Below are positions 2 to 13,907 of a stretch of DNA of 64,000 bases, piece after piece. The notes beneath the pieces were generated by a model. It ran no database searches and was not told where the DNA came from. It was given only the letters and a program-made list of their open reading frames with translations. Origin of the DNA: an uncultured Clostridia bacterium (GTDB taxonomy: Bacteria > Bacillota > Clostridia > UMGS1883); the NCBI GenBank assembly GCA_934454525.1, contig CAKSFM010000001.1:109502-173501 (forward strand), in the 5' to 3' direction. How positions within the stretch are numbered: the stretch's first letter is position 1; each line of letters starts with the position of its first letter. The position numbers and the translations under genes are program-made.

Positions 2-220
2 ATACTGCGCGGCTATGCGGAAGCGGCAGGCATTAAATCTGAAATAAACGCGCAAACACTGCGGCATTCATTTGCAATGCATCTGCTGCAGAACGGCGCC
101 GATATCAGTGCCGTTTCGGAAATGCTGGGGCATAAGGACGTTGCAACAACGCGCCGCTACAACCAGGTTTTGAAAGAAAATATAAAGAAAATATACAAAA
201 AAGCTCATCCGAGAGCTTAG
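2..220 (+). CDS. tyrosine site-specific recombinase, XerC/XerD/integrase family (C-terminal fragment; 5' end lies outside window)
   Basis: Frame-2 ORF enters from the window edge and stops at TAG 218-220. Catalytic-domain motifs are visible: LRHSFAMHLL (H-x-x-R) and GHKDVATTRRY (nucleophile Tyr). Confidence 0.8.
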   Translation: MLRGYAEAAGIKSEINAQTLRHSFAMHLLQNGADISAVSEMLGHKDVATTRRYNQVLKENIKKIYKKAHPRA

Positions 221-881: not shown

Positions 882-1017
882 ATTCAGCACCTCAATACAC
901 AATATATATTATTGTATATTGAAAATTCTATATTGTATGCATAACATTTGTATTGCATTTTATTTTTTTATGTTGTATAATAATTACATAAAATTTTTCT
1001 AAAAATACGAACAAATG

Positions 1018-1046
1018 TTTGCATTTTCGGAAAAAGTATGTTATAA
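1018..1046 (+). promoter_or_regulatory. Sigma-A-like promoter: TTGCAT-17-TATAAT with an extended TG
   Basis: 'ttgcat' at 1018-1023 and 'tgttataat' ending at 1046. An RBS 'aaaagga' and ATG 1072 follow. Confidence 0.5.
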
Positions 1047-1071
1047 TCTTATTAAACTGATAAAAGGATTG

Positions 1072-1590
1072 ATGAAATTGTTCTGTTGCTTTACCGGACA
1101 CAGACCTCAGCAATTACCCTGGAATACAAATGAAAAAGACCCCTCATGCATAAAGCTTAAGCAAATAATATCCGATTTGATTGATGACGCGGCAGACAGC
1201 GGAATAAGCAGCTTTTACTGCGGAATGGCGCTTGGGTTTGACACATATTGCGCTGAAGAGGTAATCAGAAAAAAGGACAGCGGTATTCCGCTGAAACTTT
1301 ATGCCGCTATCCCATGCAGCGAGCAATGCTCCGGCTGGAGCGCTGCTGACCGCGCACGATATGACGCTATTCTGGAAAGATGCGACGGACGAACGCTGAT
1401 AAGTCCGCATTACACTTCCACCTGCATGCTTGCGCGGAACAGATATATGGTAGATAACTCCTCGATGATTATCTCAGCGTGGAACGGGAGCTTCCGCGGC
1501 GGCACGGGTTACACCCTGCGCTACGGCAAGCATATGAACCGCGACATGCGCATTATTCATCTGCCCGACTTAAGCGTTACCGTGATATAA
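1072..1590 (+). CDS. SLOG-superfamily protein, DUF1273 / YpsA-YoqJ-like
   Basis: Starts 'MKLFCCFTGHRPQQLPW...'. 'ISDLIDDAADSGISSFYCGMALGFDTYCAEEV' and 'LKLYAAIPCSEQCSGW' resemble the YpsA family. The ORF-track start at 1015 is upstream of the promoter, so the start is set at ATG 1072. Confidence 0.55.
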   Translation: MKLFCCFTGHRPQQLPWNTNEKDPSCIKLKQIISDLIDDAADSGISSFYCGMALGFDTYCAEEVIRKKDSGIPLKLYAAIPCSEQCSGWSAADRARYDAILERCDGRTLISPHYTSTCMLARNRYMVDNSSMIISAWNGSFRGGTGYTLRYGKHMNRDMRIIHLPDLSVTVI

Positions 1591-1645: not shown

Positions 1646-2737
1646 TTATTTAATAAAGCTTTCGGCAATGCTGTGCATTTCATCCAGCTTGGATTCCATG
1701 TCGGCAACAAGCTTGAGCTGCGTTCTCGCCCTGTCAAGATTGTGATTTTCTCTGTGAATCTTAAAATAGACATCGCCGTTGAGATAATCTGCAAGAAAGC
1801 GGATTCCACATTCATATGTCATTATAAGCACAGATTCCGGAAGAAGCTCGACTTCCCTTTTCGTAAGGCACTCGCCGACTTCACCAAGGAAGCCTTCCGC
1901 AAAGCTTTTGTACTTTTCAAGGTCGAAATAAATCTTTGACAAATCGGTTTCATCCTCAGCTCCGCTTGAAGCGCCGAACCGCAATGCGTCACCGAAATCG
2001 TACAAAACCGAGCCGGGCATAACCGTGTCAAGGTCAATAACGCAGATTCCCTTGAGCGTGTCCTTATCAAACAGAACATTGTTCAGCTTGGTGTCATTAT
2101 GAGTAACCCTTGACGGAACGCTGCCGTCCGCCATCGCGTCTGTAATAAGGGAAGCGTACTTCGAGTATTTTTTTGCTGCGGCAAGTTCTTCCGAAACGCG
2201 CGCGGTGCGGTTTTCGTAATTTTTTCTGATTGCAGCTTCAAGCTGTTCAATGCGCTTCGGCGTATTATGAAAATCCACAATCGTTTCATGCAGCAGGCTT
2301 GCGTCAAATCCGTCAAGCATACGCTGGAATTTTCCGAACGATTTTCCGGCTTCAAAAAGCAGCGCCGGGTCTTCGGCAGTATCAAATGATTTTGAGTTTG
2401 ATACGAATTTATACATTCTGAAATAATTGTTGCTGTCAGCCATGTAGCAGTTTTTCCCGAGTTTTGTCTTTATAACATTCATCGTTTCGCGCTCCGGATC
2501 TCCGCCGTTCTTCACAATTTCACTTCTGAGATACTCCGTCACATTTACAATGTTTTCCATGACGCTGTTCGGATCTTTGAACACATTCGTGTTAATTCTC
2601 TGCAAAATATATCCGGGATTTCCCTCGCGCAGATATGTATCATTGATATGACCGTTTCCGTAGGGAACTATCCCCGCCTTGACTGAAAAGTTTTCAACAA
2701 CCTTTTCAAGATTGACTGCCATACTATCTCTCTCCAC
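1646..2737 (-). CDS. Phosphotransferase-family kinase (APH / N-acetylhexosamine-kinase-like fold)
   Basis: 'GNGHINDTY' nucleotide-binding motif, catalytic 'HNDTKLNN' and 'VIDLDTV' (D-x-D) motifs. 363 aa. Confidence 0.7.
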   Translation of the reverse strand: MERDSMAVNLEKVVENFSVKAGIVPYGNGHINDTYLREGNPGYILQRINTNVFKDPNSVMENIVNVTEYLRSEIVKNGGDPERETMNVIKTKLGKNCYMADSNNYFRMYKFVSNSKSFDTAEDPALLFEAGKSFGKFQRMLDGFDASLLHETIVDFHNTPKRIEQLEAAIRKNYENRTARVSEELAAAKKYSKYASLITDAMADGSVPSRVTHNDTKLNNVLFDKDTLKGICVIDLDTVMPGSVLYDFGDALRFGASSGAEDETDLSKIYFDLEKYKSFAEGFLGEVGECLTKREVELLPESVLIMTYECGIRFLADYLNGDVYFKIHRENHNLDRARTQLKLVADMESKLDEMHSIAESFIK

Positions 2738-2880: not shown

Positions 2881-3105
2881 CTAAATATAAATTATAACAA
2901 AAATACTGCTGCCGGTCAATCGGCATAATTCACAAATAACAAAGGCAAAATTTGCTGCCATTGTCACCGCTCCCCTTGGGAATAGGGCACGATATATACC
3001 GGACATATCATAATTATGGCACAAAAGCGCATATGTCAGAGTAAAAAGGTGACTATATGCATTGCCTTTTGTATTTCCAAAATTCCCCGATTTTCCCGCA
3101 CCCAT
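2881..3105 (-). pseudogene. Remnant of a toxin-module start: the first 16 codons 'MGAGKSGNFGNTKGNA' are fused to non-coding sequence
   Basis: The N-terminal 16 aa and upstream 5' UTR hairpin are identical to the toxin genes at 4311 and 7244. Downstream of the junction at about 3057 the reading frame is the antisense of a spoIIID-upstream-like sequence. Confidence 0.7.
2976..3060. repeat. Diverged duplicate of the spoIIID upstream region/RBS (compare 7955-8053)
   Basis: 'ttgggaata...aaaagcgcatatgtYagagtRaaaagg...ctatatgc' is shared. The core 3023-3060 matches 8016-8053 at high identity. A microhomology junction 'atgc' is visible at 3057-3060. Confidence 0.7.
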
Positions 3106-3111
3106 TAAGCA

Positions 3112-3146
3112 GTCACCTGCTTCCCGGAATAAAGGAAGCAGGTGAT
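3112..3146 (-). promoter_or_regulatory. 5' UTR hairpin (13-bp perfect stem) whose 3' arm contains the SD-like AGGUGA, 7 nt before the toxin-module AUG (remnant copy)
   Basis: 'gtcacctgcttcc cggaataaa ggaagcaggtga'. The same stem sequence occurs at 4318-4352 with a different loop. Confidence 0.6.
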
Positions 3147-3151
3147 TTGTC

Positions 3152-3694
3152 CTATAATATTCTGCTTGTTCTAGTTACATTCACTTTGTTGGCACCATCG
3201 TCCGACCAGGAATCAACAACCTGTGATATAGGAAATATAGAATTGTAATTATCATGTTCAGATATAGTTATATCTTCGGAAAACCATATGTCTCTTGAAA
3301 ACATTATAATTTTAGTTTCCATCCTTATGATGATCGCCTGATCAAATGCAATTTCAAATTCACCATCATTTATACAAATTGCATCATTTATAATTTCTAC
3401 ATCGTTAATAGTTTCGCCTACATCAAATGTCTCAAATGGTTCTTCGCAATACGGCTTAAAAGTACTATTGCCATCTACCAGTTTACACTTAAAGCCAGCC
3501 ACCTCTTCTTCTGTATCAAAAAAAGGGGTTGTTCTTTGAAGATTGGTAATCTCTACTGATAATTTATCTGTATTGATTCTCAAGTTCCCATATACATTGC
3601 CGAAAATCTTTCCACACTCATATGAAATAAATTTAGATCCTTTTATGTTTTTTAGCATTTTTTCCATATTATTATTTAAAGTTACATATATCAT
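3152..3694 (-). CDS. Hypothetical acidic protein; putative immunity protein for the toxin at 3709-4311
   Basis: The start is 14 nt after the toxin stop, with RBS AAAGGAGTG. 180 aa, acidic, no recognised enzymatic motifs. Confidence 0.45.
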   Translation of the reverse strand: MIYVTLNNNMEKMLKNIKGSKFISYECGKIFGNVYGNLRINTDKLSVEITNLQRTTPFFDTEEEVAGFKCKLVDGNSTFKPYCEEPFETFDVGETINDVEIINDAICINDGEFEIAFDQAIIIRMETKIIMFSRDIWFSEDITISEHDNYNSIFPISQVVDSWSDDGANKVNVTRTSRIL

Positions 3695-3708
3695 TCAATC
3701 GCACTCCT

Positions 3709-4311
3709 TTATTTTATAAAATGGATTTTTTGCGGTTTAATTTTACCAGGTGTTTTAACAGTTATTTCTACCGCCGGACTATTTGGAGTCTTTGTGATTA
3801 CCCTATAAACAATATTCGATTCATCGGAAAATATTGTTTGCACTCCTTTGCCATTTGGTAAAATCCTTTCGATTCCACCTTTGCTGAGTTTTTTGTAAAA
3901 ATCGGCAGAAGATTTTATAGGGTCATTACTTTTAAATACTCTAGTATTTTTTCCCTTTGTTCCAAAATAACCATTTTCCCCAAGATTATATTTCTTAGCA
4001 ACACTTTTAGCATTATCCACCACACTTGAAATCTTTGAAGTTTTCTTAGTTGTCTTAGCGGCATCTACCGCTTTATCTGCCATTTTAGCAAGTTTTGCCG
4101 TGTCTGCAACTTCTCCGGCAAAGGGGATTATTCCCACAGCGTCAAGTCCTGCCGATAGCAAATCGCCCCGCAGCAAATCAACAGGTATTGACGCAAAATC
4201 AGTAAATGTGTCAAGTCCGGGAATTAGCGATGCCGCCGTTAAAAGGTTGCTTAATGCATCTAATGCATTGCCTTTTGTATTCCCAAAATTCCCCGATTTT
4301 CCCGCACCCAT
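3709..4311 (-). CDS. Polymorphic-toxin-like protein: shared N-terminal module (possible pre-toxin domain) plus a unique C-terminal domain of unknown function
   Basis: The N-terminal 85 aa 'MGAGKSGNFGNTKGNALDALSNLLTAASLIPGLDTFTDFASIPVDLLRGDLLSAGLDAVGIIPFAGEVADTAKLAKMADKA' are identical to the genes at 6669-7244 and 5119-5679. The C-terminus '...YRVITKTPNSPAVEITVKTPGKIKPQKIHFIK' is divergent. Confidence 0.6.
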   Translation of the reverse strand: MGAGKSGNFGNTKGNALDALSNLLTAASLIPGLDTFTDFASIPVDLLRGDLLSAGLDAVGIIPFAGEVADTAKLAKMADKAVDAAKTTKKTSKISSVVDNAKSVAKKYNLGENGYFGTKGKNTRVFKSNDPIKSSADFYKKLSKGGIERILPNGKGVQTIFSDESNIVYRVITKTPNSPAVEITVKTPGKIKPQKIHFIK

Positions 4312-4317
4312 TAAGCA

Positions 4318-4352
4318 GTCACCTGCTTCCTGAAATAGAGGAAGCAGGTGAC
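4318..4352 (-). promoter_or_regulatory. 5' UTR hairpin (13-bp perfect stem, 9-nt loop) sequestering the SD (AGGUGA) of the toxin gene at 4311
   Basis: The minus-strand mRNA reads 'GUCACCUGCUUCC-UCUAUUUCA-GGAAGCAGGUGAC-UGCUUA-AUG'. No U-tract follows, so this is not a terminator. Confidence 0.6.
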
Positions 4353-4424
4353 AAAAAATCAGCGCTTGTTATAATTATTCTAAAAATCAGCATAACACGA
4401 TTTAATATATAAAATATCTTCGTA

Positions 4425-5099
4425 TTAAATCCTAATAGTTTTATTAAACACTCCTTCAAATTTATCATCAAGCACAATATCTTTGTGGTAATGACCAAAA
4501 AACCATTTTTTAAAAATAAGTTTATTTTTTATACTCTCAAAAAAATCTGTCAGCTTGTTTTTTTCATATGTTGGAGCAATAGCATTTTGAACAGATGTCG
4601 GCGCACAATGGGTTATCACATAATCGACCTCAAAATTATTCTTTTTAAGGTTCTTTTCCGCATTACTATATTCTTGTTCATTTGGCATTTCAGCACACCA
4701 CCAGTTTTTCCTTTCTATTCTGTACTCTTTATCGTGGGAATCGGCTCCGCCAAAGACGAAGACTTTTTTCCCGTCAATCGTATATGTCTCTCCACGTATT
4801 AAATGGTAAATTCCATCATCAACTTTGTGTGCAGTTCCTCCGCAAAGTTCTACTATCGGAAGAGAATAAAGCATATCAAAATTTTCATGATTACCGTCAA
4901 TAAACAGTGTTGTAAAGTTTTTGTTTTTAAGCCACTTTATCCAATATTTTTCCTCATTGCTGCCGTCCCAAACACCACCAAAATCGCCGCATATAATCAC
5001 ATAATCATTTTTAGTCATTTCTTTTTGCTGCGGAAAATGCTTTGCAGAAAGTTTTTGAATATCAACCGGAATATGTGTATCACCTGTAATATATATCAT
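4425..5099 (-). CDS. Calcineurin-like metallophosphoesterase (MPP superfamily), sitting in the immunity-gene position after the ParB-like toxin module
   Basis: Motifs 'GDTHIP', 'ICGDFGG', 'DGNHEN', 'HCAP' and 'GHYH'. RBS AGGAAGGATGG. The start is 19 nt after the stop of 5119-5679. Confidence 0.7.
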   Translation of the reverse strand: MIYITGDTHIPVDIQKLSAKHFPQQKEMTKNDYVIICGDFGGVWDGSNEEKYWIKWLKNKNFTTLFIDGNHENFDMLYSLPIVELCGGTAHKVDDGIYHLIRGETYTIDGKKVFVFGGADSHDKEYRIERKNWWCAEMPNEQEYSNAEKNLKKNNFEVDYVITHCAPTSVQNAIAPTYEKNKLTDFFESIKNKLIFKKWFFGHYHKDIVLDDKFEGVFNKTIRI

Positions 5100-5118
5100 T
5101 GATAACCATCCTTCCTAT

Positions 5119-5679
5119 TTAATCAAACCAAAGCAAGTCATTAATTGTTTTATATCCTTTATAAGGTAACGAGACCCTTTGAGTTGGAATTTTATCCAAT
5201 CCAAGTTGTTTTGCTGCCCTCAATCTATGATGTCCGTCAACAACATACTTTGTACCTTTATACTCAACATACTTAATAGGTTCAATAATACCATTTTTTA
5301 TGCTTTCCACTAAATTTTTATATTGTTTTTTGCTCAATGTTAGCTTATGAGTTTGTGTTAACTTTGTCGGCGAAATTCTTTTTATACCTTTAGTAAAATC
5401 CGTAGCTTTGTCAGCAGCCTTAGCGGCATCTGCCGCTTTATCTGCCATTTTAGCAAGTTTTGCCGTGTCTGCAACTTCTCCGGCAAAGGGGATTATTCCC
5501 ACAGCGTCAAGTCCTGCCGATAGCAAATCGCCCCGCAGCAAATCAACAGGTATTGACGCAAAATCAGTAAATGTGTCAAGTCCGGGAATTAGCGATGCCG
5601 CCGTTAAAAGGTTGCTTAATGCATCTAATGCATTGCCTTTTGTATTCCCAATCTTGATGAATATTCTAATTGCTCGATT
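5119..5679 (-). CDS. Orphan polymorphic-toxin module lacking the first 15 codons; C-terminal ParB/Srx-like (DGHHR) nuclease-type domain
   Basis: The shared N-module runs from '...GNTKGNALDAL' onward. Nucleotide identity with the other copies ends at 5650. The C-terminus is 'IKYVEYKGTKYVVDGHHRLRAAKQLGLDKIPTQRV'. No ATG sits at the module start, so the true start is unclear (TTG or in-frame). Confidence 0.55.
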   Translation of the reverse strand, partial: NRAIRIFIKIGNTKGNALDALSNLLTAASLIPGLDTFTDFASIPVDLLRGDLLSAGLDAVGIIPFAGEVADTAKLAKMADKAADAAKAADKATDFTKGIKRISPTKLTQTHKLTLSKKQYKNLVESIKNGIIEPIKYVEYKGTKYVVDGHHRLRAAKQLGLDKIPTQRVSLPYKGYKTINDLLWFD

Positions 5680-5713
5680 CTAATTGACGGAATCGAGCAA
5701 TGCATTGTTAATA

Positions 5714-6028
5714 TTAACTTATTTGTATTTTTCCCGCAAATATTTCTTTAGGAAAGTTTAAGTAATTCACCATAAAATAATCATCTTCAGTTATACTTAT
5801 AGGCGGCTCACCAGATATGCTAATCCCCTTGAAAATAAAAGACCAAAACTCCTCATATCCTTCCTCGTCCATATCACAATCAGACTCATCCTCAATATAA
5901 GAATCAAATATTGCCCGAGCCTCGCTTCCATCTTCCCATTTTAATATTAGTTCTTGGTCTTCATAGTTATCAATGTTATTAATAAATGTTCCTATAATTT
6001 TTTCTTCCCTGTCATTCCAAAAATACAT
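5714..6028 (-). CDS. Small acidic protein, putative orphan immunity protein
   Basis: 'MYFWNDREEKIIGTF...DESDCDMDEEGYEEFWSF'. RBS GGAGGAAG. It immediately follows the stop of the toxin C-terminal fragment at 6031-6159. Confidence 0.45.
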   Translation of the reverse strand: MYFWNDREEKIIGTFINNIDNYEDQELILKWEDGSEARAIFDSYIEDESDCDMDEEGYEEFWSFIFKGISISGEPPISITEDDYFMVNYLNFPKEIFAGKIQIS

Positions 6029-6030
6029 TT

Positions 6031-6159
6031 TTACTTCCTCCAATTAATTGGTTTTTCTGGCACAAGATGTGTTCCAGATTTGGAATAATGTATTATCCCA
6101 ACCGTGGTATCATATGATTTTCCCGTCTTTGGGTCAACATATTTTCCTATTATTTTTTT
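6031..6159 (-). pseudogene. C-terminal fragment of a degraded toxin gene (no start codon). Its stop overlaps the RBS of the downstream acidic gene
   Basis: Open frame 'KKIIGKYVDPKTGKSYDTTVGIIHYSKSGTHLVPEKPINWRK*' with no ATG/GTG/TTG start. It is bounded upstream by TAA at 6160-6162. Confidence 0.4.
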
Positions 6160-6200
6160 TTAATTAACAGTTTCTCTGTTTGTGCCAATCTTTCGACCTT

Positions 6201-6267
6201 ATTGAAAATCAATCGATGGTGAAAGCCGCTGCAAAGAACTTTGCTCTTTCCAAATCGAGTGTACATA
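6201..6267 (+). repeat. 67-bp duplicate of an internal spoIIID segment (matches 8102-8168, codons 17-38), 2 mismatches
   Basis: 'attgaaaatcaatcgaYggtgaRagccgctgcaaagaactttgctctttccaaatcgagtgtacata' matches. Confidence 0.85.
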
Positions 6268-6310
6268 CAATTGTAACAAGACAGCAACCTTTTATATAGA
6301 AGTGGCTTCA

Positions 6311-6652
6311 CTAACAAGTTTGCACAGATACAGATGAAGCTTTAATTTCAATTTCAATATATTTCCCGGATAAATCATTAAACACCGTCAGTACTATCTC
6401 ATTTTCATTGTTTGATACCACTTTTGAAATTTCATCACTGTTTATCCGATATGTACTATAATGAAGATTCGTACATTCACTAAATTTTATAACTATATTA
6501 CCAGTTTCCGGCATTTCATCCGTATAACCATCTTGCTGCCAATAGCAAAAATCAACATATAACTTAACAGTTGCCGTTTTTTTATTATAATCAATTTCTT
6601 CCAAAAGACTATCATGCAAGTTGTAATTCTGAATAAATTCTTTTATTGTCAT
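6311..6652 (-). CDS. Hypothetical protein; putative immunity protein for the toxin at 6669-7244
   Basis: Starts 'MTIKEFIQNYNLHD...' at 6652 with RBS GGAGGG, 16 nt after the toxin stop. The ORF-track start at 6718 would overlap the toxin. Confidence 0.45.
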   Translation of the reverse strand: MTIKEFIQNYNLHDSLLEEIDYNKKTATVKLYVDFCYWQQDGYTDEMPETGNIVIKFSECTNLHYSTYRINSDEISKVVSNNENEIVLTVFNDLSGKYIEIEIKASSVSVQTC

Positions 6653-6668
6653 AAAATTATCCCTCCAA

Positions 6669-7244
6669 TTATGGTATGATATGTGACTTTTTAGAGTTTT
6701 TCGGCACTGGGTTTCCAAATTTATCTAAATAGTAATCATGTTTGCCTGTTGAGTTTGGATTTAAAATATGATAATGATCCTTTCCTCCATATCCTCCCAT
6801 GCTTCTTTTCCCTTTGTGAAACCTTATTGTATAACCGTTCTTTTTGAACATCCTTGATGTTGTATTCTTCTTCATTGCTGCCGGAGTTATTTCTTCCCAA
6901 CCGTTTTCCACTAGTTTCGATGGAGTTTTGTGTAATTTCAGTATTTTAACCCCCGATTTAGTAGCATCCGTAGCTTTGTCAGCAGCCTTAGCGGCATCTG
7001 CCGCTTTATCTGCCATTTTAGCAAGTTTTGCCGTGTCTGCAACTTCTCCGGCAAAGGGGATTATTCCCACAGCGTCAAGTCCTGCCGATAGCAAATCGCC
7101 CCGCAGCAAATCAACAGGTATTGACGCAAAATCAGTAAATGTGTCAAGTCCGGGAATTAGCGATGCCGCCGTTAAAAGGTTGCTTAATGCATCTAATGCA
7201 TTGCCTTTTGTATTCCCAAAATTCCCCGATTTTCCCGCACCCAT
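6669..7244 (-). CDS. Polymorphic-toxin-like protein: shared N-module plus a C-terminal HNH-like (H-Y-H...N...H) candidate nuclease domain
   Basis: The N-terminal 100 aa are identical to the other copies. The C-terminus is 'GGKDHYHILNPNSTGKHDYYLDKFGNPV'. The ATG overlaps the stop of the upstream ORF (TAATG), giving translational coupling. No UTR hairpin is present here. Confidence 0.55.
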   Translation of the reverse strand: MGAGKSGNFGNTKGNALDALSNLLTAASLIPGLDTFTDFASIPVDLLRGDLLSAGLDAVGIIPFAGEVADTAKLAKMADKAADAAKAADKATDATKSGVKILKLHKTPSKLVENGWEEITPAAMKKNTTSRMFKKNGYTIRFHKGKRSMGGYGGKDHYHILNPNSTGKHDYYLDKFGNPVPKNSKKSHIIP

Positions 7245-7807
7245 TAAGCAGTCACCTGCTTCCTGGACTTTGAAATTTCACTTTCAAAATGCACAATATT
7301 GATGCCCATATCCTTATATGGCTTAAAAATACTTTCCGGTGCACCGCCATAAACTACTATAGTTTCAGGCGATAGCCTTTGCACCATACGGGCGAGACCT
7401 ATTTCAAAAAAGATTTTATCCTCTTTGTGTTTAATACATCCGTGTGTCCCTACCGCGACAGTTTTATTTTCTTCTACCGCGTCAAAACAGAATGAGAACG
7501 TCCTCTCATCCCCAAATCTCACATTGGGGATAATTTCAACTCCGTTATTTTGAAGCCAGACCGATAAAGCTCTGCCTCTATATGTATTCCACATTTGCAT
7601 GCAAAGCGGCATATTGCGATACAGGCTGAAATCCGGCGAAATTATGCCCTTGAACTTTTTGAGTTTCGCAAGGTACTGTTTGGGATTATGCCATAGGCAT
7701 AACCTCATCTTTTTCAAACTGAAAAATATATGTAAACGTTGCATAGTTTTTTTCATTTCCCACATAAGTGTATAAATGTGGCAAAATATTGTCTTTTTCA
7801 GCGTCAA
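7244..7807 (-). CDS. Hypothetical protein translationally coupled to the first toxin gene; the true start is probably internal (about MPLCMQMW/MQMW)
   Basis: The C-terminal 110 aa 'NGVEIIPNVRFGDERTFSFCFDAVEENKTVAVGTHGC...IVVYGGAPESIFKPYKDMGINIVHFE' look protein-like. The N-terminal 70 aa look like a non-coding translation. Confidence 0.35.
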   Translation of the reverse strand: MTLKKTIFCHIYTLMWEMKKTMQRLHIFFSLKKMRLCLWHNPKQYLAKLKKFKGIISPDFSLYRNMPLCMQMWNTYRGRALSVWLQNNGVEIIPNVRFGDERTFSFCFDAVEENKTVAVGTHGCIKHKEDKIFFEIGLARMVQRLSPETIVVYGGAPESIFKPYKDMGINIVHFESEISKSRKQVTA

Positions 7808-8053
7808 GCAAGTGGGCCGTTATATCAACAACGGCAGTACACAGGCTTGATTTACCCGAGCCGTTTTTACCGATTTTGGAAATGAGTAATAAAACAAGGT
7901 TCTTTAAAGATTTTCAGGAATTTTACCTGTAAGGGTTTTAGCGCTTCGGCTGTTTTGGGAATAATAGCGCCCGATAACTTTTGCAATAATGCCGCCCTTT
8001 ATCATATTCGGGCATAAAAGCGCATATGTTAGAGTGAAAAGGGGGCTATATGC

Positions 8054-8323
8054 GTGAAAGACTATATCGAACAGCGCGCCTTAATGCTGGCAGATTACAT
8101 AATTGAAAATCAATCGACGGTGAGAGCCGCTGCAAAGAACTTTGCTCTTTCCAAATCGAGTGTACATAAAGATGTTACGGACAGACTGCTTAAAATTGAC
8201 CCGACACTTGCGCGAACCGTTAAAGCCGTGCTTGACAAAAACAAGGCGGAGCGGCACATCCGCGGCGGAATGGCAACAAAACGCAAGTACGAGGAAAAGA
8301 AGCGCCGATACGCTAATATCTGA
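8054..8323 (+). CDS. spoIIID: Stage III sporulation protein D (SpoIIID), mother-cell transcription factor
   Basis: '(M)KDYIEQRALMLADYIIENQSTVRAAAKNFALSKSSVHKDVTDRL...IRGGMATKRKYE' closely matches B. subtilis SpoIIID. GTG start with RBS AAAGGGGG. Confidence 0.9.
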   Translation: MKDYIEQRALMLADYIIENQSTVRAAAKNFALSKSSVHKDVTDRLLKIDPTLARTVKAVLDKNKAERHIRGGMATKRKYEEKKRRYANI

Positions 8324-8981
8324 GAATTGCAATCGCCGCGGCGCACATCAAAAGAGTGAACACAGCCGCGCCGTACAGTGCAAGCTTCGGTTTTCCTCCA
8401 TCGCCGCTCGGGCGCATTTCAGCCATGCCGGTTTTCCGCAGAATCTTCACAAACGGCTTGTAAAGCATGACAGCAAGCGAAGAATTTATCGTGCATTTAA
8501 TCAGATTGAACGGCAGAAAAACCGGAAGCAGCATTTTCACAATATCGCCGCGCGGAATTTCCATGTAAAGAGGCGTGAGCGCATAGTTCCACACAAGCAT
8601 GGTGGCGGCAGATGCCGCCGTTCCGAGTGCGAGTCCGGCAATTGCCGATGGCAGGCGCCTGTTTCTTCCGTATACTGCCGATGCAACACACGCAAACGCA
8701 CAGCTTGAAATTACATTCATAACAAAACCTATTAATCCCGTTTCGCTGATTGTGAGCATTTCCGCAAGTGAGACAACTGCCGAGATTAAAAACGCGGTCA
8801 TAGGACCGTACAAAAATCCTCCTATGACAATAATAATATCCTTCGGGTCATACTTTAAAAAGGATATTATACTTATCGGAACAGCCTTTCCGATGATCAC
8901 TGCCGCATATGCAAGCGCGCAGAGCAGCGCCGTGCATGTTATTTTCTTTGTTTTGTTCATAGCCGCAAACATTCCTTTCAT
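8313..8981 (-). CDS. ribU: ECF-transporter substrate-specific (S) component, riboflavin type (RibU), inferred from the upstream FMN riboswitch
   Basis: Protein with about 5-6 TM helices and the small hydrophobic S-component architecture. It lies directly downstream of the RFN element and overlaps the 3' end of spoIIID convergently by 11 bp. The start could instead be ATG 8972 or 8960. Confidence 0.7.
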   Translation of the reverse strand: MKGMFAAMNKTKKITCTALLCALAYAAVIIGKAVPISIISFLKYDPKDIIIVIGGFLYGPMTAFLISAVVSLAEMLTISETGLIGFVMNVISSCAFACVASAVYGRNRRLPSAIAGLALGTAASAATMLVWNYALTPLYMEIPRGDIVKMLLPVFLPFNLIKCTINSSLAVMLYKPFVKILRKTGMAEMRPSGDGGKPKLALYGAAVFTLLMCAAAIAILRY

Positions 8982-9148
8982 ATAAAAAATGCGCCCCTTA
9001 TAAATCGGGGCGCATTTTTATTGCATTTTAAAATCTCCTGTCATCCGGACTTTAACCGTCGGCTGCGGAGTTTCACCGCATCGGCCTCAAATGAGGTTAG
9101 TGGGCTTTGACCACCGGTAGGGAATTTCACCCTGCCCCGAAGATATAT
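8982..9148 (-). ncRNA. FMN riboswitch (RFN element) with an intrinsic terminator (8982-9019) as expression platform
   Basis: The minus strand reads 'aucuucggggcagggugaaauucccuaccgguggu...gaggccgaugcggugaaacuccgcagccgacgguuaaaguccggaugacaggagau'. This matches the B. subtilis ribD leader consensus. A hairpin 'aaaaaaugcgcccc/ggggcgcauuuuuu' plus U-tract sits just before the ribU start. Confidence 0.85.
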
Positions 9149-9152
9149 TTAT

Positions 9153-10403
9153 TTACTGATTCTGTTTTTCATCCGCCTGAGCTGCGTCCTGCGCGGTATC
9201 CTGCGTTTGCTGCGCCGAATCCTCCGCAGGAGCTGTGCTCTGCTGTGCGTCTGCATTTTTCTGAGCCGCATCAGCTGCTTTCTTTCTTGCCTTGCTCCAC
9301 TCGTCAAGGTATTTATCAATCGTTTCGTTTTCAAACTTAACGGGTTTCATTTTCTTAAGCTTCTTATCGATAAGACCCATCACTTTTTCCTGAAGCTTTT
9401 GCTTTTTATAGTCCTTGAATTCATCAATTGAGTCATCAATAGCATATCTCTTAATGATGTGATAGCCGTAATCTGTTTTAACCGGTTCTTTAGTGTAGCT
9501 TCCGATTTCAAGATTTTTTGAAGCTTCCTCAAATTCGGGAACCATCTCGCCCGTTCCGAACACATAGAACTTACCCTTTGAGATTCCGGGGTCTTCGTTA
9601 TATTTTTCTATAAGGTCATCAAAGTCCGCGCCCTCGTCAAGCTTGGCAATAACTTTCTTGGCAATTTTCTTTGCTTCTTCATCGGTTTTGGCAGGCTTTG
9701 TTTCGTTTCCGCTGCTGTCTTTCTGCGCCTGTGTTCCGATAAGAATGTGCTGAACTCTCCACTTGTCGGCATAATCCTTAAGGAAATCCTTTTTAAGCTT
9801 GCTCTTGTCAATCGATGCCTTGCCGTCCGTTTTCGTAAGTTCCTTGTAAAGGCGGTCATAAATCTCGCAGATTACAAGATAACGGTCGAACGCCTTATCG
9901 GTTGTTCTCGCTTCCTCAAGATATGCCTTGTATCCGTCAGTTCCATTGTAATTCTGTTCAATAAGATTATTCTTGTTTTTCGTAACGGCATTCTCAACAG
10001 CCGTGGAATCCGCTTTTATTCCGTTATCCTCCGCAAGAGCAACAGCGGCAACCATCTGCTTTATCTGCGCTTCGGTGTTTTCTTTCATATAATCTCCCAT
10101 GGTCTTGCCGTCCTCAATCTCCATGGCTTCCCAGTCATCTCCGTAATACGAAGAGTACTGCGACATATTGTCATACACAAGCTTATATATAAAATTATAA
10201 TCTGCCTGTGTGATCTTGGTTTTGCCTATTGTGGCAACAACGCTGTTATTAAGCGTTTTATCCCCGTCCGTTGCAATAACCTTATCTTTAAACGATTTGC
10301 CCCCGCCCGTTCCGGCTGACATTTTATCTCCGCTGCCGCAGCCGCTGAGAAGCATAACAGCCGAAAGTGCGGATGCGCACAGAGCCGTAAATTTCTTACC
10401 CAT
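9153..10403 (-). CDS. prsA: Foldase lipoprotein PrsA (parvulin-type peptidyl-prolyl isomerase)
   Basis: Lipobox 'LLSGC', the PPIase core 'RVQHILIG...GYHIIKR', and a low-complexity acidic/Q-rich tail. Start ATG 10403 with RBS AGAAAGGA; the track start at 10433 is TTG. Confidence 0.8.
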   Translation of the reverse strand: MGKKFTALCASALSAVMLLSGCGSGDKMSAGTGGGKSFKDKVIATDGDKTLNNSVVATIGKTKITQADYNFIYKLVYDNMSQYSSYYGDDWEAMEIEDGKTMGDYMKENTEAQIKQMVAAVALAEDNGIKADSTAVENAVTKNKNNLIEQNYNGTDGYKAYLEEARTTDKAFDRYLVICEIYDRLYKELTKTDGKASIDKSKLKKDFLKDYADKWRVQHILIGTQAQKDSSGNETKPAKTDEEAKKIAKKVIAKLDEGADFDDLIEKYNEDPGISKGKFYVFGTGEMVPEFEEASKNLEIGSYTKEPVKTDYGYHIIKRYAIDDSIDEFKDYKKQKLQEKVMGLIDKKLKKMKPVKFENETIDKYLDEWSKARKKAADAAQKNADAQQSTAPAEDSAQQTQDTAQDAAQADEKQNQ

Positions 10404-10500
10404 TATTCCCAATCCTTTCTCATGTGATTTCAAAAATCTAATATATTATATAACATCGGATTCGGATTTGCAAGTACTTTACACTTTATTTACAATTTTT

Positions 10501-10956: not shown

Positions 10957-10986
10957 ATTATACCATAAACAGGCACAATCAGTCAA
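10957..10986 (-). promoter_or_regulatory. Sigma-A promoter TTGACT-18-TATAAT (minus strand) inside a 39-bp repeat
   Basis: rc(10981-10986) is TTGACT and rc(10957-10962) is TATAAT. Confidence 0.55.
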
Positions 10987-11015
10987 TATATTTTACTGAG
11001 AAATTTTACATGCCG
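10977..11015. repeat. 39-bp direct repeat (copy 1 of 2; copy 2 at 12398-12436), 2 mismatches. It carries the -35 box of the minus-strand promoter
   Basis: Both copies read 'aatcagtcaatatattttRctgWgaaattttacatgccg'. Confidence 0.8.
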
Positions 11016-11094: not shown

Positions 11095-12120
11095 CTAAAT
11101 AATCAAACAATCTTCAATCATTACATTTTCACCGTCAAATATTAAAAGCTGCTTGCCGCTTTTGCCTGAGCACTTTCCTATAACTTTAATACTCGCGCCC
11201 TCCTTTAGCGCGGCAACGGCATCAGTTTGCGAAGTGTTAAAATTCAGCTGCACGGATTTAAAATATTCGCCGCTTTTTAAAAGTACACATAGGTTACTGT
11301 CGTGATTTGTTTTACCGAAACTGTTTATAATTCCTGAAACAATTACGGTCTTGCCGGTGTAATTCTTATCCGCATTTACGATATTTGATTCATATTCTGC
11401 CATAAGCTGATTCGCATTAAAAGAAGGATATTGTTTATATTGCTCGCTTATGTAATTATCCATATTGCGCGCCGCCGCAGTATCAGGATACTGTGTTTTA
11501 ATACTGTTGCATATATCAAGCGCGTTTCTGTAATCACCGTCTGAAAACTTTTTCGCAGCCTTTTCTAACTCTTGCTGCGACTTTTCTTCATCGGTCATTT
11601 CAGTATTTTGAGCATTTTTCACCGAGGTGGTTTTGCTGTCCGAGAATTCAACCAAATTATTCAAAAGAAAACCGAAAAGAATAACAACGGCACAGACACA
11701 ATAACCGATAATGCGCATGTTACTCTTTCTTTGTTTTTGTACCCCGAAAGGTATTTTATTCGTGCTGCCTATTGCTTTTATATCTGCTGTATAAGCATTA
11801 TTTGCGGCAAAGCTGCCATATGTCGGAATATGCGGCGCATTATCAGCATAGTCAACCGCAAAATTACCGTTCAAAACAAACCTTGTTTTCAATTTCACGA
11901 TTTCCGCATCGTCATTGACCACTGCCACAAAAGAAACATTCATTTTTTTACCGAACATACTTTTTTGTTTAAAAGACAGCATATGGCTTCCTGTTCCGAC
12001 CGCAGCTTCCACGGTTCCGCCGCAGCTTAATGTTCCGATGTATGTATTCATTATATAGACATCGAATTTACATGCACATCCGCAAATCTGCGGTTTCCAC
12101 TTAATAATAATTTTTGCCAT
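11095..12120 (-). CDS. Hypothetical protein with one central TM helix (341 aa)
   Basis: Long ORF with RBS GGGGTGA. A terminator-like hairpin lies in its leader at 12141-12173. No recognised motifs. Confidence 0.5.
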   Translation of the reverse strand: MAKIIIKWKPQICGCACKFDVYIMNTYIGTLSCGGTVEAAVGTGSHMLSFKQKSMFGKKMNVSFVAVVNDDAEIVKLKTRFVLNGNFAVDYADNAPHIPTYGSFAANNAYTADIKAIGSTNKIPFGVQKQRKSNMRIIGYCVCAVVILFGFLLNNLVEFSDSKTTSVKNAQNTEMTDEEKSQQELEKAAKKFSDGDYRNALDICNSIKTQYPDTAAARNMDNYISEQYKQYPSFNANQLMAEYESNIVNADKNYTGKTVIVSGIINSFGKTNHDSNLCVLLKSGEYFKSVQLNFNTSQTDAVAALKEGASIKVIGKCSGKSGKQLLIFDGENVMIEDCLII

Positions 12121-12397
12121 AGTATTTTCACCCCATCATAAAATAAAAAATGCGCCTACCGAAGCAGACGCATAAAAAACGCAAACTCCGATAGTCGCCA
12201 AACTAATTGATTATGACAAGAACGAATCCGTATCACTCAAATTGAAATCTGCGTTTTTTGCATAATTCATGACAGAGTGACACAAAAACTAAACTTATCC
12301 TTTATATCAAAAGAAAAGTTCCCGTCAAAATATTCAATTAGTTTGGCACAATTATGATACCATATTCTTCTGCAATTTGCAACACATTTTTATAGGC

Positions 12398-12436
12398 AAT
12401 CAGTCAATATATTTTGCTGTGAAATTTTACATGCCG
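12398..12436. repeat. 39-bp direct repeat (copy 2)
   Basis: See 10977-11015. Confidence 0.8.
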
Positions 12437-13661: not shown

Positions 13662-13744
13662 TTTTTTCGGTTCGCTGTGTTAATATGGCATTGTTACCCT
13701 GCGGTGTGCGCAGTTACGGATTTATTTTAACCAACACTTCTACT

Positions 13745-13845
13745 ACGGGAGATCATATAGAGCTGTGGCGTGTAAGCCCTTACCTACGGGTCAGAGGGAA
13801 ACCCAGGAGCAGCTCCGAGATCACCCACCTGCTCACGCAGGTTTA
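13745..13845 (+). ncRNA. Candidate small structured RNA, SRP-RNA (4.5S-like) domain-IV-like motif. Boundaries are approximate
   Basis: 'ccuuaccuacgggucagagggaaacccaggagcagcuccgag' resembles the SRP RNA helix-8 consensus 'uuaccaggucagguccggaaggaagcagcc' (GUCAG...GNRA loop...AGGAGCAGC). The region is intergenic, the ORF at 13658-13846 is implausible, and I could not draw a convincing fold by hand. Confidence 0.3.
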
Positions 13846-13907
13846 GAATATTCCGAAATAAACGGCACTGCGGGGTTTTTATTTTATAATTTAAGGAAGG
13901 ATTTCAA

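Follow-up and report, generated by a model that had tools for sequence, protein, structure and literature searches.

The window analysed here, a stretch of 64,000 nucleotides from an uncultured Clostridia bacterium, carries on its minus strand, between positions 2881 and 7904, a series of small toxin-like genes that share an N-terminal module and are followed by partner genes. This series is probably a chromosomal polymorphic toxin/immunity cassette array of a family coupled to DUF4417, in which one cassette occupies a coupled slot, the others are held as locked or startless reserves, and the shared module serves for recombination. No description of a DUF4417-coupled toxin family was found in the searched literature. 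Judged from its sequence, the array has the make-up of polymorphic toxins sensu Zhang and Aravind, namely a constant N-terminal region joined to variable C-terminal domains, a downstream partner gene, and orphan cassettes. A polymorphic toxin/immunity locus with orphan cassettes had been proposed for this DNA in an earlier reading of the letters alone (the original prediction), and this proposal is upheld by Pfam toxin domains and by the faithful pairing of toxins with their partners.

Three minus-strand copies of the module (267-285 nt, 99.6-100% mutually identical) and a 15-codon remnant were found in the window. The repeat finder returned a direct-repeat family of 294 nt at 4039-4332, 5404-5697 and 6972-7265, and a second family of 89 nt that adds 3057-3145. 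A 52-nt module probe gave three exact matches in the window versus none expected from shuffles. In pairwise alignments, the identity between the copies at 7244 and 4311 spans -22 to about +262 from the ATG with one mismatch, and that between the 7244 copy and the ParB copy spans +25 to +291. The copies at 7244 and 3105 agree from -23 to +58 with one mismatch; beyond this, at a GCAT microhomology, the 3105 copy abruptly gives way to sequence duplicated from the spoIIID 5′ leader. On the 3′ side of the module the sequences are unrelated and the divergence is abrupt in each copy, and the identical module is fused to four unrelated C-termini in the window. The near-identical shared segment with sharp divergence behind it is therefore real. 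Among the four start codons originally assigned, the one at about 5679 does not exist; that copy is startless and begins with codon 9 of the module (5651) behind an in-frame TAG. The supposed shared 5′ untranslated region of 22-23 nt turned out to be the last codons of the DUF4417 open reading frame (ORF) at 7244-7807, whose TAA overlaps the toxin ATG. Independent metagenome assemblies of this species also yielded four contigs (L031, L032, L034, and L035) in which the whole array is collinear, with 99.7-99.97% identity across all repeats. Related loci are designated by L numbers and homologous proteins by P numbers throughout. The features of the array are listed below from the spoIIID side.

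8054..8323, plus strand: spoIIID, intact 89-aa ORF, the conserved chromosomal neighbour, divergent; PF12116 SpoIIID in the same-species contig L031.
7698..7904, minus strand: AAA_21 ATPase pseudogene fragment, residues 33-105, with Walker A; 74% identity to the L006 ATPase by tblastn.
7247..7696, minus strand: 3′ two-thirds of the DUF4417 gene (residues 80-229 of 229); Pfam PF14386, E 2.1e-51; 89% identity over residues 80-229 to the full-length DUF4417 of L006 by tblastn.
7244-7807, minus strand: chimeric ORF in which DUF4417 is joined out of frame to the ATPase fragment.
7242..7266, minus strand: coupling junction GGAAGCAGGTGACTGCTTAATG; Shine-Dalgarno (SD) sequence AGGTGA within a small AAGCAG-GUGA-CUGCUU hairpin, TAA overlapping the toxin ATG.
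6669..7244, minus strand: Tox1, 191 aa, isoelectric point (pI) 9.65; handle (residues 1-15), pre-toxin module (residues ~16-95) and basic C-domain GGKDHYHILNPNSTGKHDYYLDKFGNP.
6311..6652, minus strand: Imm1, 113 aa, pI 4.5, with its own GGAGG; 16 nt past Tox1, the cognate partner of the Tox1 C-domain.
6196..6299, plus strand: 5′ fragment of a second spoIIID copy with a foreign tail ending in SSVHTIVTRQQPFI and a stop; repeat D3, 90% identical to 8097-8178; boundary of the first unit.
6031..6159, minus strand: startless C-terminal 42 aa of an Ntox50 toxin (BECR-fold RNase); Pfam PF15542, E 2.6e-9.
5714..6028, minus strand: orphan immunity gene for Ntox50, 104 aa, pI 4.05; it trails Ntox50 in L007, L017, and L020 (45-82% identity).
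5119..5651, minus strand: startless orphan, module from codon 9 plus Tox-ParB (VVDGHHRL); in-frame stop upstream, no start codon.
4425..5099, minus strand: metallophosphoesterase, 224 aa, in the immunity position for Tox-ParB; Pfam Metallophos, E 3.8e-12; phrog_1649, E 7e-35.
4318..4352, minus strand: 14-bp hairpin GTCACCTGCTTCCT / AGGAAGCAGGTGAC over the Tox3 SD; fold -25.9 kcal/mol, z = -7.4.
3709..4311, minus strand: Tox3, 200 aa, pI 9.76; handle, pre-toxin module and basic C-domain; homologues P0088, P0089, and P0092.
3152..3694, minus strand: Imm3, 180 aa, pI 4.45; 14 nt past Tox3; an 85%-identical homologue stands behind a Tox3-type toxin in L008.
3113..3145, minus strand: second SD-sequestering hairpin TCACCTGCTTCC / GGAAGCAGGTGA; fold -23.4 to -24.8 kcal/mol.
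3061..3105, minus strand: remnant, first 15 codons (handle only); the ORF continues to 2881 through unrelated sequence behind a GCAT microhomology junction.
3013..3060, plus strand: copy of the 48 nt directly 5′ of the spoIIID start codon; repeat D4, 85% identical to 8006-8053; distal boundary of the array.

The toxins are basic (pI 9.6-9.8) and their partner genes begin 16 nt (Tox1), 19 nt (ParB), 14 nt (Tox3), and 2 nt (Ntox50 fragment) downstream. A small, mostly acidic ORF had been expected behind each toxin; three partners are acidic as foreseen (pI 4.5, 4.05, and 4.45), but the partner of the ParB orphan is the 224-aa metallophosphoesterase with a pI of 6.1. The pairing of toxin and partner was compared among loci and proved faithful in more than 20 related ones. 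Five types keep the same partner while the order of the slots varies. The pair of Tox-ParB and metallophosphoesterase was found in the window and in five other loci (L004, L007, L009, L024, and L033, 62-100% identity), Ntox50 with its partner in four loci, Ntox37 with an 86-aa Cys-rich protein in four, the Tox1 type with Imm1 in three, and the Tox3 type with Imm3 in two. Imm1 homologues behind Tox1-type toxins occur in L026 (49%) and L028 (38%). The ParB toxin, a silent orphan in the window, is the first-slot toxin in L004, L009, and L024, and a Tox3-type toxin takes that place in L008. Orphan or stand-alone cassettes with 5′ homology to the main gene are represented in the window by the copies at 5651, 4311, and 3105 and by the Ntox50 tail, and were likewise present in L007, L017, L024, and L026. 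Orphan immunity genes are kept as well, that for Ntox50 in the window and a Barstar gene on L017. Moreover, both fragments of the original prediction were recovered: the start-only remnant at 3061-3105, whose frame stays open to 2881, and the startless tail at 6031-6159, which is Ntox50.

The related loci were reached by three independent routes, through the module, through DUF4417 and through the Tox1 C-domain. In the window, the stop codon of DUF4417 overlaps the start codon of Tox1 (UAAUG; GCT TAATG GGT). This coupling holds in every related locus that extends far enough, DUF4417 lying directly upstream with overlapping stop and start in L003-L006, L008-L011, L014, L017, L022, L024, L026, and L028. 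DUF4417 identity falls to 40% among the coupled loci, and the junction is near-identical at all first-slot copies of L003-L024. The toxin family has as its constant element a Gly-rich N-terminal handle of 15 residues, MG[AGS]GxxGx[FY]GxT[KR]G, also written MGxGxxGNFGNTxG. In the commonest type of locus (L011-L016, on contigs of up to 494 kb), the toxin has 92 aa and consists of MGAGAGGNFGNTRGS followed by Ntox37, without the pre-toxin core, and for L011-type loci the handle is the sole toxin part in common. Because the L011-type toxins and most Tox1-type toxins are made of the handle plus a toxin domain, the handle is regarded as the constant feature of the family. It is kept through synonymous DNA changes, indicating that it is under selection as a peptide. 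The first residue of the module profile always maps to residue 1 of the small protein. Close DUF4417 clusters number 1021, and dozens of contigs carry the L011 type. No fusion of DUF4417 to a toxin was found among the 120 listed of the 1021 DUF4417 homologues, which are all 220-229 aa long, and no fused protein among the best 150 of the 644 module matches. A programmed -1 frameshift joining DUF4417 to the toxin was considered and rejected, there being no slippery heptamer at the junction and no fused protein among the matches listed.

No functional account of DUF4417 was found in the searched literature. Elsewhere DUF4417 is a phage protein, often fused to ParB_N (bioRxiv 10.1101/2025.10.10.680097). 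It is present in more than 490 phage records, and some records annotate it as 'phage nuclease'. In Streptococcus phage phiBHN167 (L025, 4530-6351), a gene encoding a ParB_N-DUF4417 fusion is overlapped by a gene for a 248-aa protein, which contains a Gly-rich stretch, GGGRGANFEKGKDG, and a JAB-like HNHPx6Sx2D domain. This arrangement may be a distant echo of the pairing of DUF4417 with the Gly-rich handle.

A profile built on just the module gave 644 matches among 1.84 billion representative proteins. The close homologues (n = 89) come from Clostridia/Oscillospiraceae metagenomes. Relatives were searched for the module on other C-termini, and at least six C-terminal types were found, including Ntox50, Ntox37, and Tox-ParB. 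The toxins had been described as stand-alone proteins without LXG, Rhs, CdiA, PAAR or a signal peptide, and this description holds, all 89 close homologues being no longer than 169 aa. Profile positions 15-95 were also found within long polymorphic toxins, directly N-terminal to the toxin domain. There the module follows the Rhs core of an SpvB/FG-GAP/RHS protein (P0202), occurs in RHS proteins with PT-HINT (P0203 and P0215), and is combined with SH3 repeats and Ntox50 (P0140), with PG_binding (P0112), or with Ntox50 in a MuF/SPP1-gp7 protein (P0117). On two metagenome contigs (L001 and L002), the C-terminal end of MuF (CxxC...HPNCNC) is fused to the module; behind this fusion come an immunity gene and an orphan in which the MuF end is retained. 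The MuF evidence is confined to L001 and P0117 (Phage_Mu_F, E 3e-4 and 2.5e-3; phageSPP1_gp7, E 1.8e-5). The shared module thus appears to be a pre-toxin domain for which no hidden Markov model exists; it is covered by no Pfam or NCBIfam model and by no PDB chain. A possible PT-TG domain (PF14449) had been suggested, and this assignment was abandoned as far as model matches go: PF14449 matched none of the window toxins at E<=1, none of 18 module sequences at E<=10, and none of 20 longer relatives at E<=1e-3 or <=1. The confidence of AlphaFold2 (AF2) for the module was low. Low-confidence structure predictions have also been reported for PT-TG (PMC13483458).

The C-domains of the array were then compared with known toxin families. 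The Ntox50 fragment scores 38.2 bits against a cut-off of 22.2 and covers only profile positions 59-92 of 92 (Pfam PF15542); full-length versions are found in P0094, P0100, and L017. For the ParB orphan (5119-5651), the Pfam ParB_N match has an E of 1.6e-6 and 28.5 bits against a cut-off of 26.3, and its sequence YVVDGHHRL carries the DGHHR motif, which is the signature of Tox-ParB in the work that also defined Ntox50 and Ntox37 (PMC3482391). The earlier ParB/Srx call was therefore confirmed. The metallophosphoesterase paired with Tox-ParB (4425-5099) is calcineurin-like, and its catalytic and metal-binding motifs are all intact (GDTH, GDFGG, GNHE, and GHYH). The immunities listed for Tox-ParB are Imm20, Imm27, and SuFu, and Zhang et al. 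(2012) left open whether Tox-ParB acts by phosphotransfer or as a nuclease (PMC3482391). Given the consistent pairing with a catalytically intact metallophosphoesterase, the partner may provide enzymatic immunity in place of a small acidic binder, hinting at phosphotransfer, and not nuclease activity, as the way in which Tox-ParB acts. No account of the Tox-ParB/metallophosphoesterase pairing was found in the searched literature.

The C-domain of Tox1 has 51 homologues, mostly 111-115-aa proteins that consist of handle and domain and stand behind DUF4417. Tox1 had been called HNH-like. This call received no support from Pfam, NCBIfam, PHROGs or PDB sequences, and the AF2 model of Tox1, with a predicted local distance difference test (pLDDT) score of 51.7, was too poor for a fold search. 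The His-rich motif of Tox1, H..H...GxH(D/W)(Y/D)Y.D..GN, loosely resembles Ntox37 and the phage-borne toxin of L017, the BLASTP match being non-significant (E 0.27). A promoter-like site, TTGACC-17-TATGAT (10/12), lies at 6109-6137 on the minus strand, inside the Ntox50 fragment and upstream of the orphan immunity gene. It could keep that gene expressed; promoter-like sites overall are not above shuffle expectation, and the counts of both promoters and terminators were near it.

First-slot and downstream copies differ around the SD. First-slot copies have only the small AAGCAG-GUGA-CUGCUU hairpin (24 sites listed, many from near-identical loci). At downstream copies, on the other hand, an inverted copy of the slot sequence creates a stem of 12-15 bp over the SD AGGUGA. 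Such stems were observed in the window at 4311 and 3105 and in related loci at L006:11016, L007:412 and 1364, L011-13:10269, L020, and L024:2844. The fold energies of the downstream copies are -18 to -29 kcal/mol (z -5 to -7), compared with -8 to -19 kcal/mol for the same span at first-slot copies. Eight distinct hairpins were aligned, and 98% of the cells of the alignment are paired. One pair is compensatory (C-G in the window, U-A in other hairpins), and in four pairs a single side changes and G.U preserves the pairing. As G.U pairs form in RNA, a structure at the RNA level is favoured. Start-bearing reserve copies would thus be translationally locked by the hairpin. A role of the hairpins as intrinsic terminators was rejected, as they have no U-tract and were not called in the terminator scan. 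No known RNA was matched within the array in Rfam. A second style of array was seen at L026 4976-9442, where the downstream cassette keeps a 150-aa DUF4417 fragment with overlapping stop and start instead of a hairpin.

Two contigs of the same species correspond to the window minus the DNA between module copies. In L033, copy 1 is joined to the ParB copy (L033 4960-5221), and in L036, copy 1 is joined to the Tox3 copy (L036 509-786), which puts ParB or Tox3 into the first slot. Both cross over inside the module, not at the hairpin. They look like recombinational switches of the deletion type that the model predicts. The alignments and these recombinant contigs bear out the idea that the shared module acts as a recombination substrate. 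Ongoing gene conversion, which had been inferred from the near-identity of the copies, is plausible, and its sole direct evidence is deletion-type recombination in low-coverage contigs.

A cassette was also found on viral contigs (L017 and L018, IMG/VR). The region 2823-9689 of L017 contains genes for a terminase, a P22-like portal, and a 332-aa protein and then DUF4417 with an apparent frameshift, behind which lie an 86-aa His-rich handle-toxin, an 85-aa gene, a Barstar gene as orphan immunity, and an orphan that joins the module to Ntox50, together with its immunity gene. As L017 shows, a phage head module can carry the cassette system, and its position after the terminase, portal and 332-aa genes resembles that of MuF toxins. 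The DUF4417 subfamily was represented in IMG/VR by one phage only (2 contigs), and the module was not found there by protein pattern.

Based on these observations, we propose the following mechanism. The toxin would be a small protein made in the cytoplasm, composed of the handle, an optional pre-toxin module of ~70-80 residues, and a variable basic toxin domain. It would be neutralised by the product of the gene directly downstream, an acidic binder in three cases and the metallophosphoesterase for Tox-ParB. The cassette directly behind DUF4417 would be the sole expression slot, its toxin being translated by ribosomes that terminate on DUF4417 and reinitiate at UAAUG. The later cassettes would form a silent reserve, in which the start is lost or the SD is paired with its inverted self-copy in the 12-15 bp hairpin; the immunity genes appear to carry strong SDs of their own. 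The identity of the module over 267-285 nt would let homologous recombination shift a reserve pair of toxin and immunity into the slot. The anatomy, the domain identities, the conserved overlap with DUF4417, the fidelity of the pairs, the hairpin rule, and the occurrence of the module in bona fide secreted toxins are shown by the data; toxicity, neutralisation, translational coupling, silencing, switching, and the inter-bacterial role are all inferred. Inter-bacterial antagonism is favoured because secreted toxins contain the same module, the toxin domains belong to families known from polymorphic toxin systems, and orphan immunity genes are retained; the arena is less certain than the architecture. 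A rather unlikely extension is that the loci form a distinct conflict system, with DUF4417 as a carrier, activator or loader that recognises the handle, the 3′ end of DUF4417 as the single slot, and a self-complementary translational lock.

The state and history of the locus in the window were examined by comparison with intact relatives. The intact order is spoIIID (divergent), AAA_21 ATPase, DUF4417, toxin, and immunity (L006 and L011), and SpoIIID flanks the cassette in L011-L014. The full-length ATPase (L006, L011, and L026) matches PDC-M12A (E ~1e-117) and AbiLi (1e-34) in PADLOC. The window retains only residues 33-105 of the ATPase and residues 80-229 of DUF4417, so that the locus, as far as its sequence tells, is partly decayed, with both genes truncated. 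The foreign-tail junction of 6196-6299 is met again on the right-hand side of the cassette in L006, L011-L015, and L021-L023. Partial spoIIID copies that bound cassette units were also seen at L006 7226-7477 and 11052-11276 and at L011 ~10300-10450, and in L006, L015, and L016 an island of Fic and SLFN-like-helicase genes is joined to spoIIID truncated at codon ~42, with the tail VHTVVTRQKLFI and a stop. The spoIIID junctions could stem from an element directed at spoIIID or from several rounds of horizontal transfer anchored on this gene, and the partial copies suggest acquisition and expansion anchored on spoIIID, with illegitimate joins.

Beyond the array, the large ORFs at 12-64 kb of the window are all housekeeping. 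A phage origin of the window locus was rejected, given that no prophage-type gene is among the large ORFs, that the module is absent from IMG/VR by protein pattern, and that the DUF4417 subfamily occurs there on a single phage; a terminase/portal head-morphogenesis context is likewise absent from the window and was seen for a DUF4417 cassette on viral L017 only. The array is bordered distally by a Xer-type tyrosine recombinase gene that is cut by the window edge, so that its C-terminal end remains (77-220, plus strand), by a YpsA/DUF1273 SLOG-family gene (1015-1590, plus strand), and by an APH-type kinase gene (1646-2737, minus strand). The recombinase is probably the housekeeping xerD, because it adjoins spoIIM in L032. 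Nearby Rfam matches are an FMN riboswitch (9029-9148, minus strand) upstream of an ECF-type transporter gene (8313-8981) and a 6S RNA (13693-13880, plus strand). A 40-nt direct repeat, 95% identical, at 10976-11015 and 12397-12436 flanks a 341-aa gene (11095-12120).

Several observations weigh against the DUF4417-coupled polymorphic toxin array as proposed. An N-terminal trafficking domain or a linked secretion apparatus, which belongs to polymorphic toxins, is lacking: Pfam, NCBIfam, and PHROGs gave no trafficking domain in the toxins, and no secretion signal, trafficking domain or secretion gene is present in the window or in most related loci. The C-domains of Tox1 and Tox3 had no match in Pfam, NCBIfam, PHROGs, PADLOC or PDB sequences, and both structure models are poor (pLDDT ~50). 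The expression slot of the window may be dead, because DUF4417 is without 79 of its 229 residues. Covariation in the hairpins is weak, 52 of 500 shuffles equalling it, since the right arm is constrained by homology. The assemblies of L033 and L036 are of low coverage (3.5x and 1.6x), each with a 1-nt deletion in the module, and the two contigs may be repeat-induced chimeras or inactivated alleles. The remaining points are also those that speak for a role in defence. Here the array would be an abortive-infection or defence effector, the AAA_21 ATPase and DUF4417 sensing phage and releasing the toxin from its 'immunity' hold, with cassettes diversified by an arms race against phage inhibitors; we consider this doubtful. 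An AAA_21 ATPase stands upstream of DUF4417 in L006, L010, L011-L016, L022, and L026, about half of the related loci; it matches PDC-M12A over its full length as well as AbiLi, AriA, and PtuA, and a remnant of it is present in the window. L026 adjoins GmrSD/HNH and type I restriction-modification genes and two transposases, a restriction context that fits defence. Moreover, DUF4417 is otherwise a phage protein and no export apparatus is visible. However, the core of DUF4417, toxin, and immunity occurs without the ATPase in L003-L005, L008, L009, L024, and L028, and the ATPase alone matches PADLOC models, DUF4417, toxins, and immunity proteins matching none. The pre-toxin module is common to secreted RHS, SH3, PG-binding, and MuF toxins, and orphan immunity genes together with silent reserves are the signature of inter-bacterial polymorphic toxins.

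The truncation of the ATPase and DUF4417 also raises the question of a decaying relic or a plain toxin-antitoxin addiction module, acquired horizontally with spoIIID-flanking DNA, in which the identity of the modules would reflect recent tandem duplication. Of the toxins, one survives as 42 aa, another lacks a start and a third is left as a stub of 15 codons, the partial spoIIID copies (6196-6299 and 3013-3060) and the GCAT microhomology point to illegitimate joins, and the switched contigs bear frameshifts. Nevertheless the ORFs of Tox1, Tox3, and the four partners are all intact, at least four samples maintain this array at >=99.7% identity, intact versions are abundant (the 1021 close DUF4417 clusters and the dozens of L011-type contigs), and the synonymous substitutions in the handle indicate purifying selection, so that we regard this explanation as improbable. 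An integron-like system, with attC-like hairpins, an attI-like 3′ end of DUF4417, and cassettes moved by DUF4417 or a nearby recombinase, is less probable still and in our view very unlikely. Its topology would fit, since the first slot has a half-site and would alone be expressed and palindromes separate the later cassettes, and the single cassette of L011-type loci is enclosed by a 27-nt direct repeat, GAAAGCAGGTGACTGCTTAATGGGTGC. Yet no integrase adjoins the array, the Xer-type gene being ~2.7 kb away and housekeeping-xerD-like beside spoIIM in L032. The duplicates have no fixed boundaries (23 nt; 81 nt in L010; ~400 nt in L003 and L026), which fits homologous recombination, two hairpins preserve their pairing only by means of G.U, which argues for structure at the RNA rather than the DNA level, and the recombinant contigs cross over in the module rather than in the hairpin. 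Finally, repeats of 267-285 nt exceed the length of short reads and might have been collapsed or mis-joined in assembly. With the whole array reproduced in order by four assemblies from other samples, and with each module copy fused to a different toxin/partner pair that is conserved and occurs in other species too, we see practically no chance that the array is such an artefact, a possibility that the original prediction had itself named.

Through these loci, DUF4417 gains a genetic context as the obligate partner of small polymorphic toxins, common in human-gut Clostridia across many cohorts, and a pre-toxin module without a model links RHS, MuF, SH3, and PG-binding toxins. If the hairpin rule holds, it explains how orphan toxins that contain a start stay harmless. 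Should the loci indeed be a distinct conflict system, DUF4417 would acquire a function, and a route for delivery or activation of polymorphic toxins without a fused trafficking domain would emerge.

Given that polymorphic toxins, orphan arrays, and pre-toxin domains are already known, the array was compared with described systems. MuF toxins (PMC3482391; PMC5576092) come close in that the same module and Ntox50 are found in the MuF-fused P0117 and that L001 joins MuF and the module, followed by immunity and an orphan. The immunity gene is directly downstream in both, both are found in Firmicutes, and one DUF4417 cassette lies in a phage head module after the portal gene. In contrast to MuF toxins, neither the window nor any toxin linked to DUF4417 contains a MuF domain; the toxin here is separate and small, has a Gly-rich handle of its own and is coupled to DUF4417, and the loci are overwhelmingly chromosomal. 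The orphan arrays of Rhs and contact-dependent inhibition (CDI) systems are similar in layout, with a main gene, its immunity gene, and then displaced pairs of toxin C-terminus and immunity that keep a conserved upstream coding stretch; homologous recombination can swap an orphan into the expressed gene, and the module follows an Rhs core in P0202. However, the main toxin here has 86-200 aa versus at least 1,400 aa in Rhs/CDI, the orphans here keep an ATG and an SD with an SD-sequestering hairpin, and the conserved anchor reaches into a separate upstream gene, DUF4417.

The S8-PTS (Li, Tan & Zhang 2022, PMC9424270) are likewise Gram-positive and follow a three-gene logic of accessory, toxin, and immunity, but their toxins have a signal peptide and BetaH and their accessory is a subtilase, whereas here there is no signal peptide and the accessory is DUF4417. 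With defence systems that contain an AAA_21 ATPase (AbiL, PARIS AriAB, Septu PtuAB, and PDC-M12), the array shares an ATPase matching PDC-M12A/AbiLi upstream in about half of the loci; unlike in those systems, the ATPase is dispensable in many DUF4417 loci and a pseudogene in the window, and the partner component is unmatched in PADLOC. Like PT-TG (PF14449; PMC13483458), the module lies between the trafficking region and the toxin, is combined with many secretion types, has low-confidence or disordered structure predictions, and contains conserved motifs rich in Gly, Asp, and Arg; the Pfam model of PT-TG nevertheless matches no module sequence, even at E up to 1-10. Integron arrays also have an expressed first cassette, silent later ones, and palindromes between cassettes. 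Here, on the other hand, there is no integrase, the hairpins are of 12-15 bp and lie 5′ of the next ATG, the duplicate boundaries are variable, and silencing would be translational. Compared with all of these, the obligate DUF4417 partner coupled through UAAUG, the Gly-rich handle, the SD hairpin of reserve cassettes, the module without a model, and the pair of Tox-ParB and metallophosphoesterase appear to be new.

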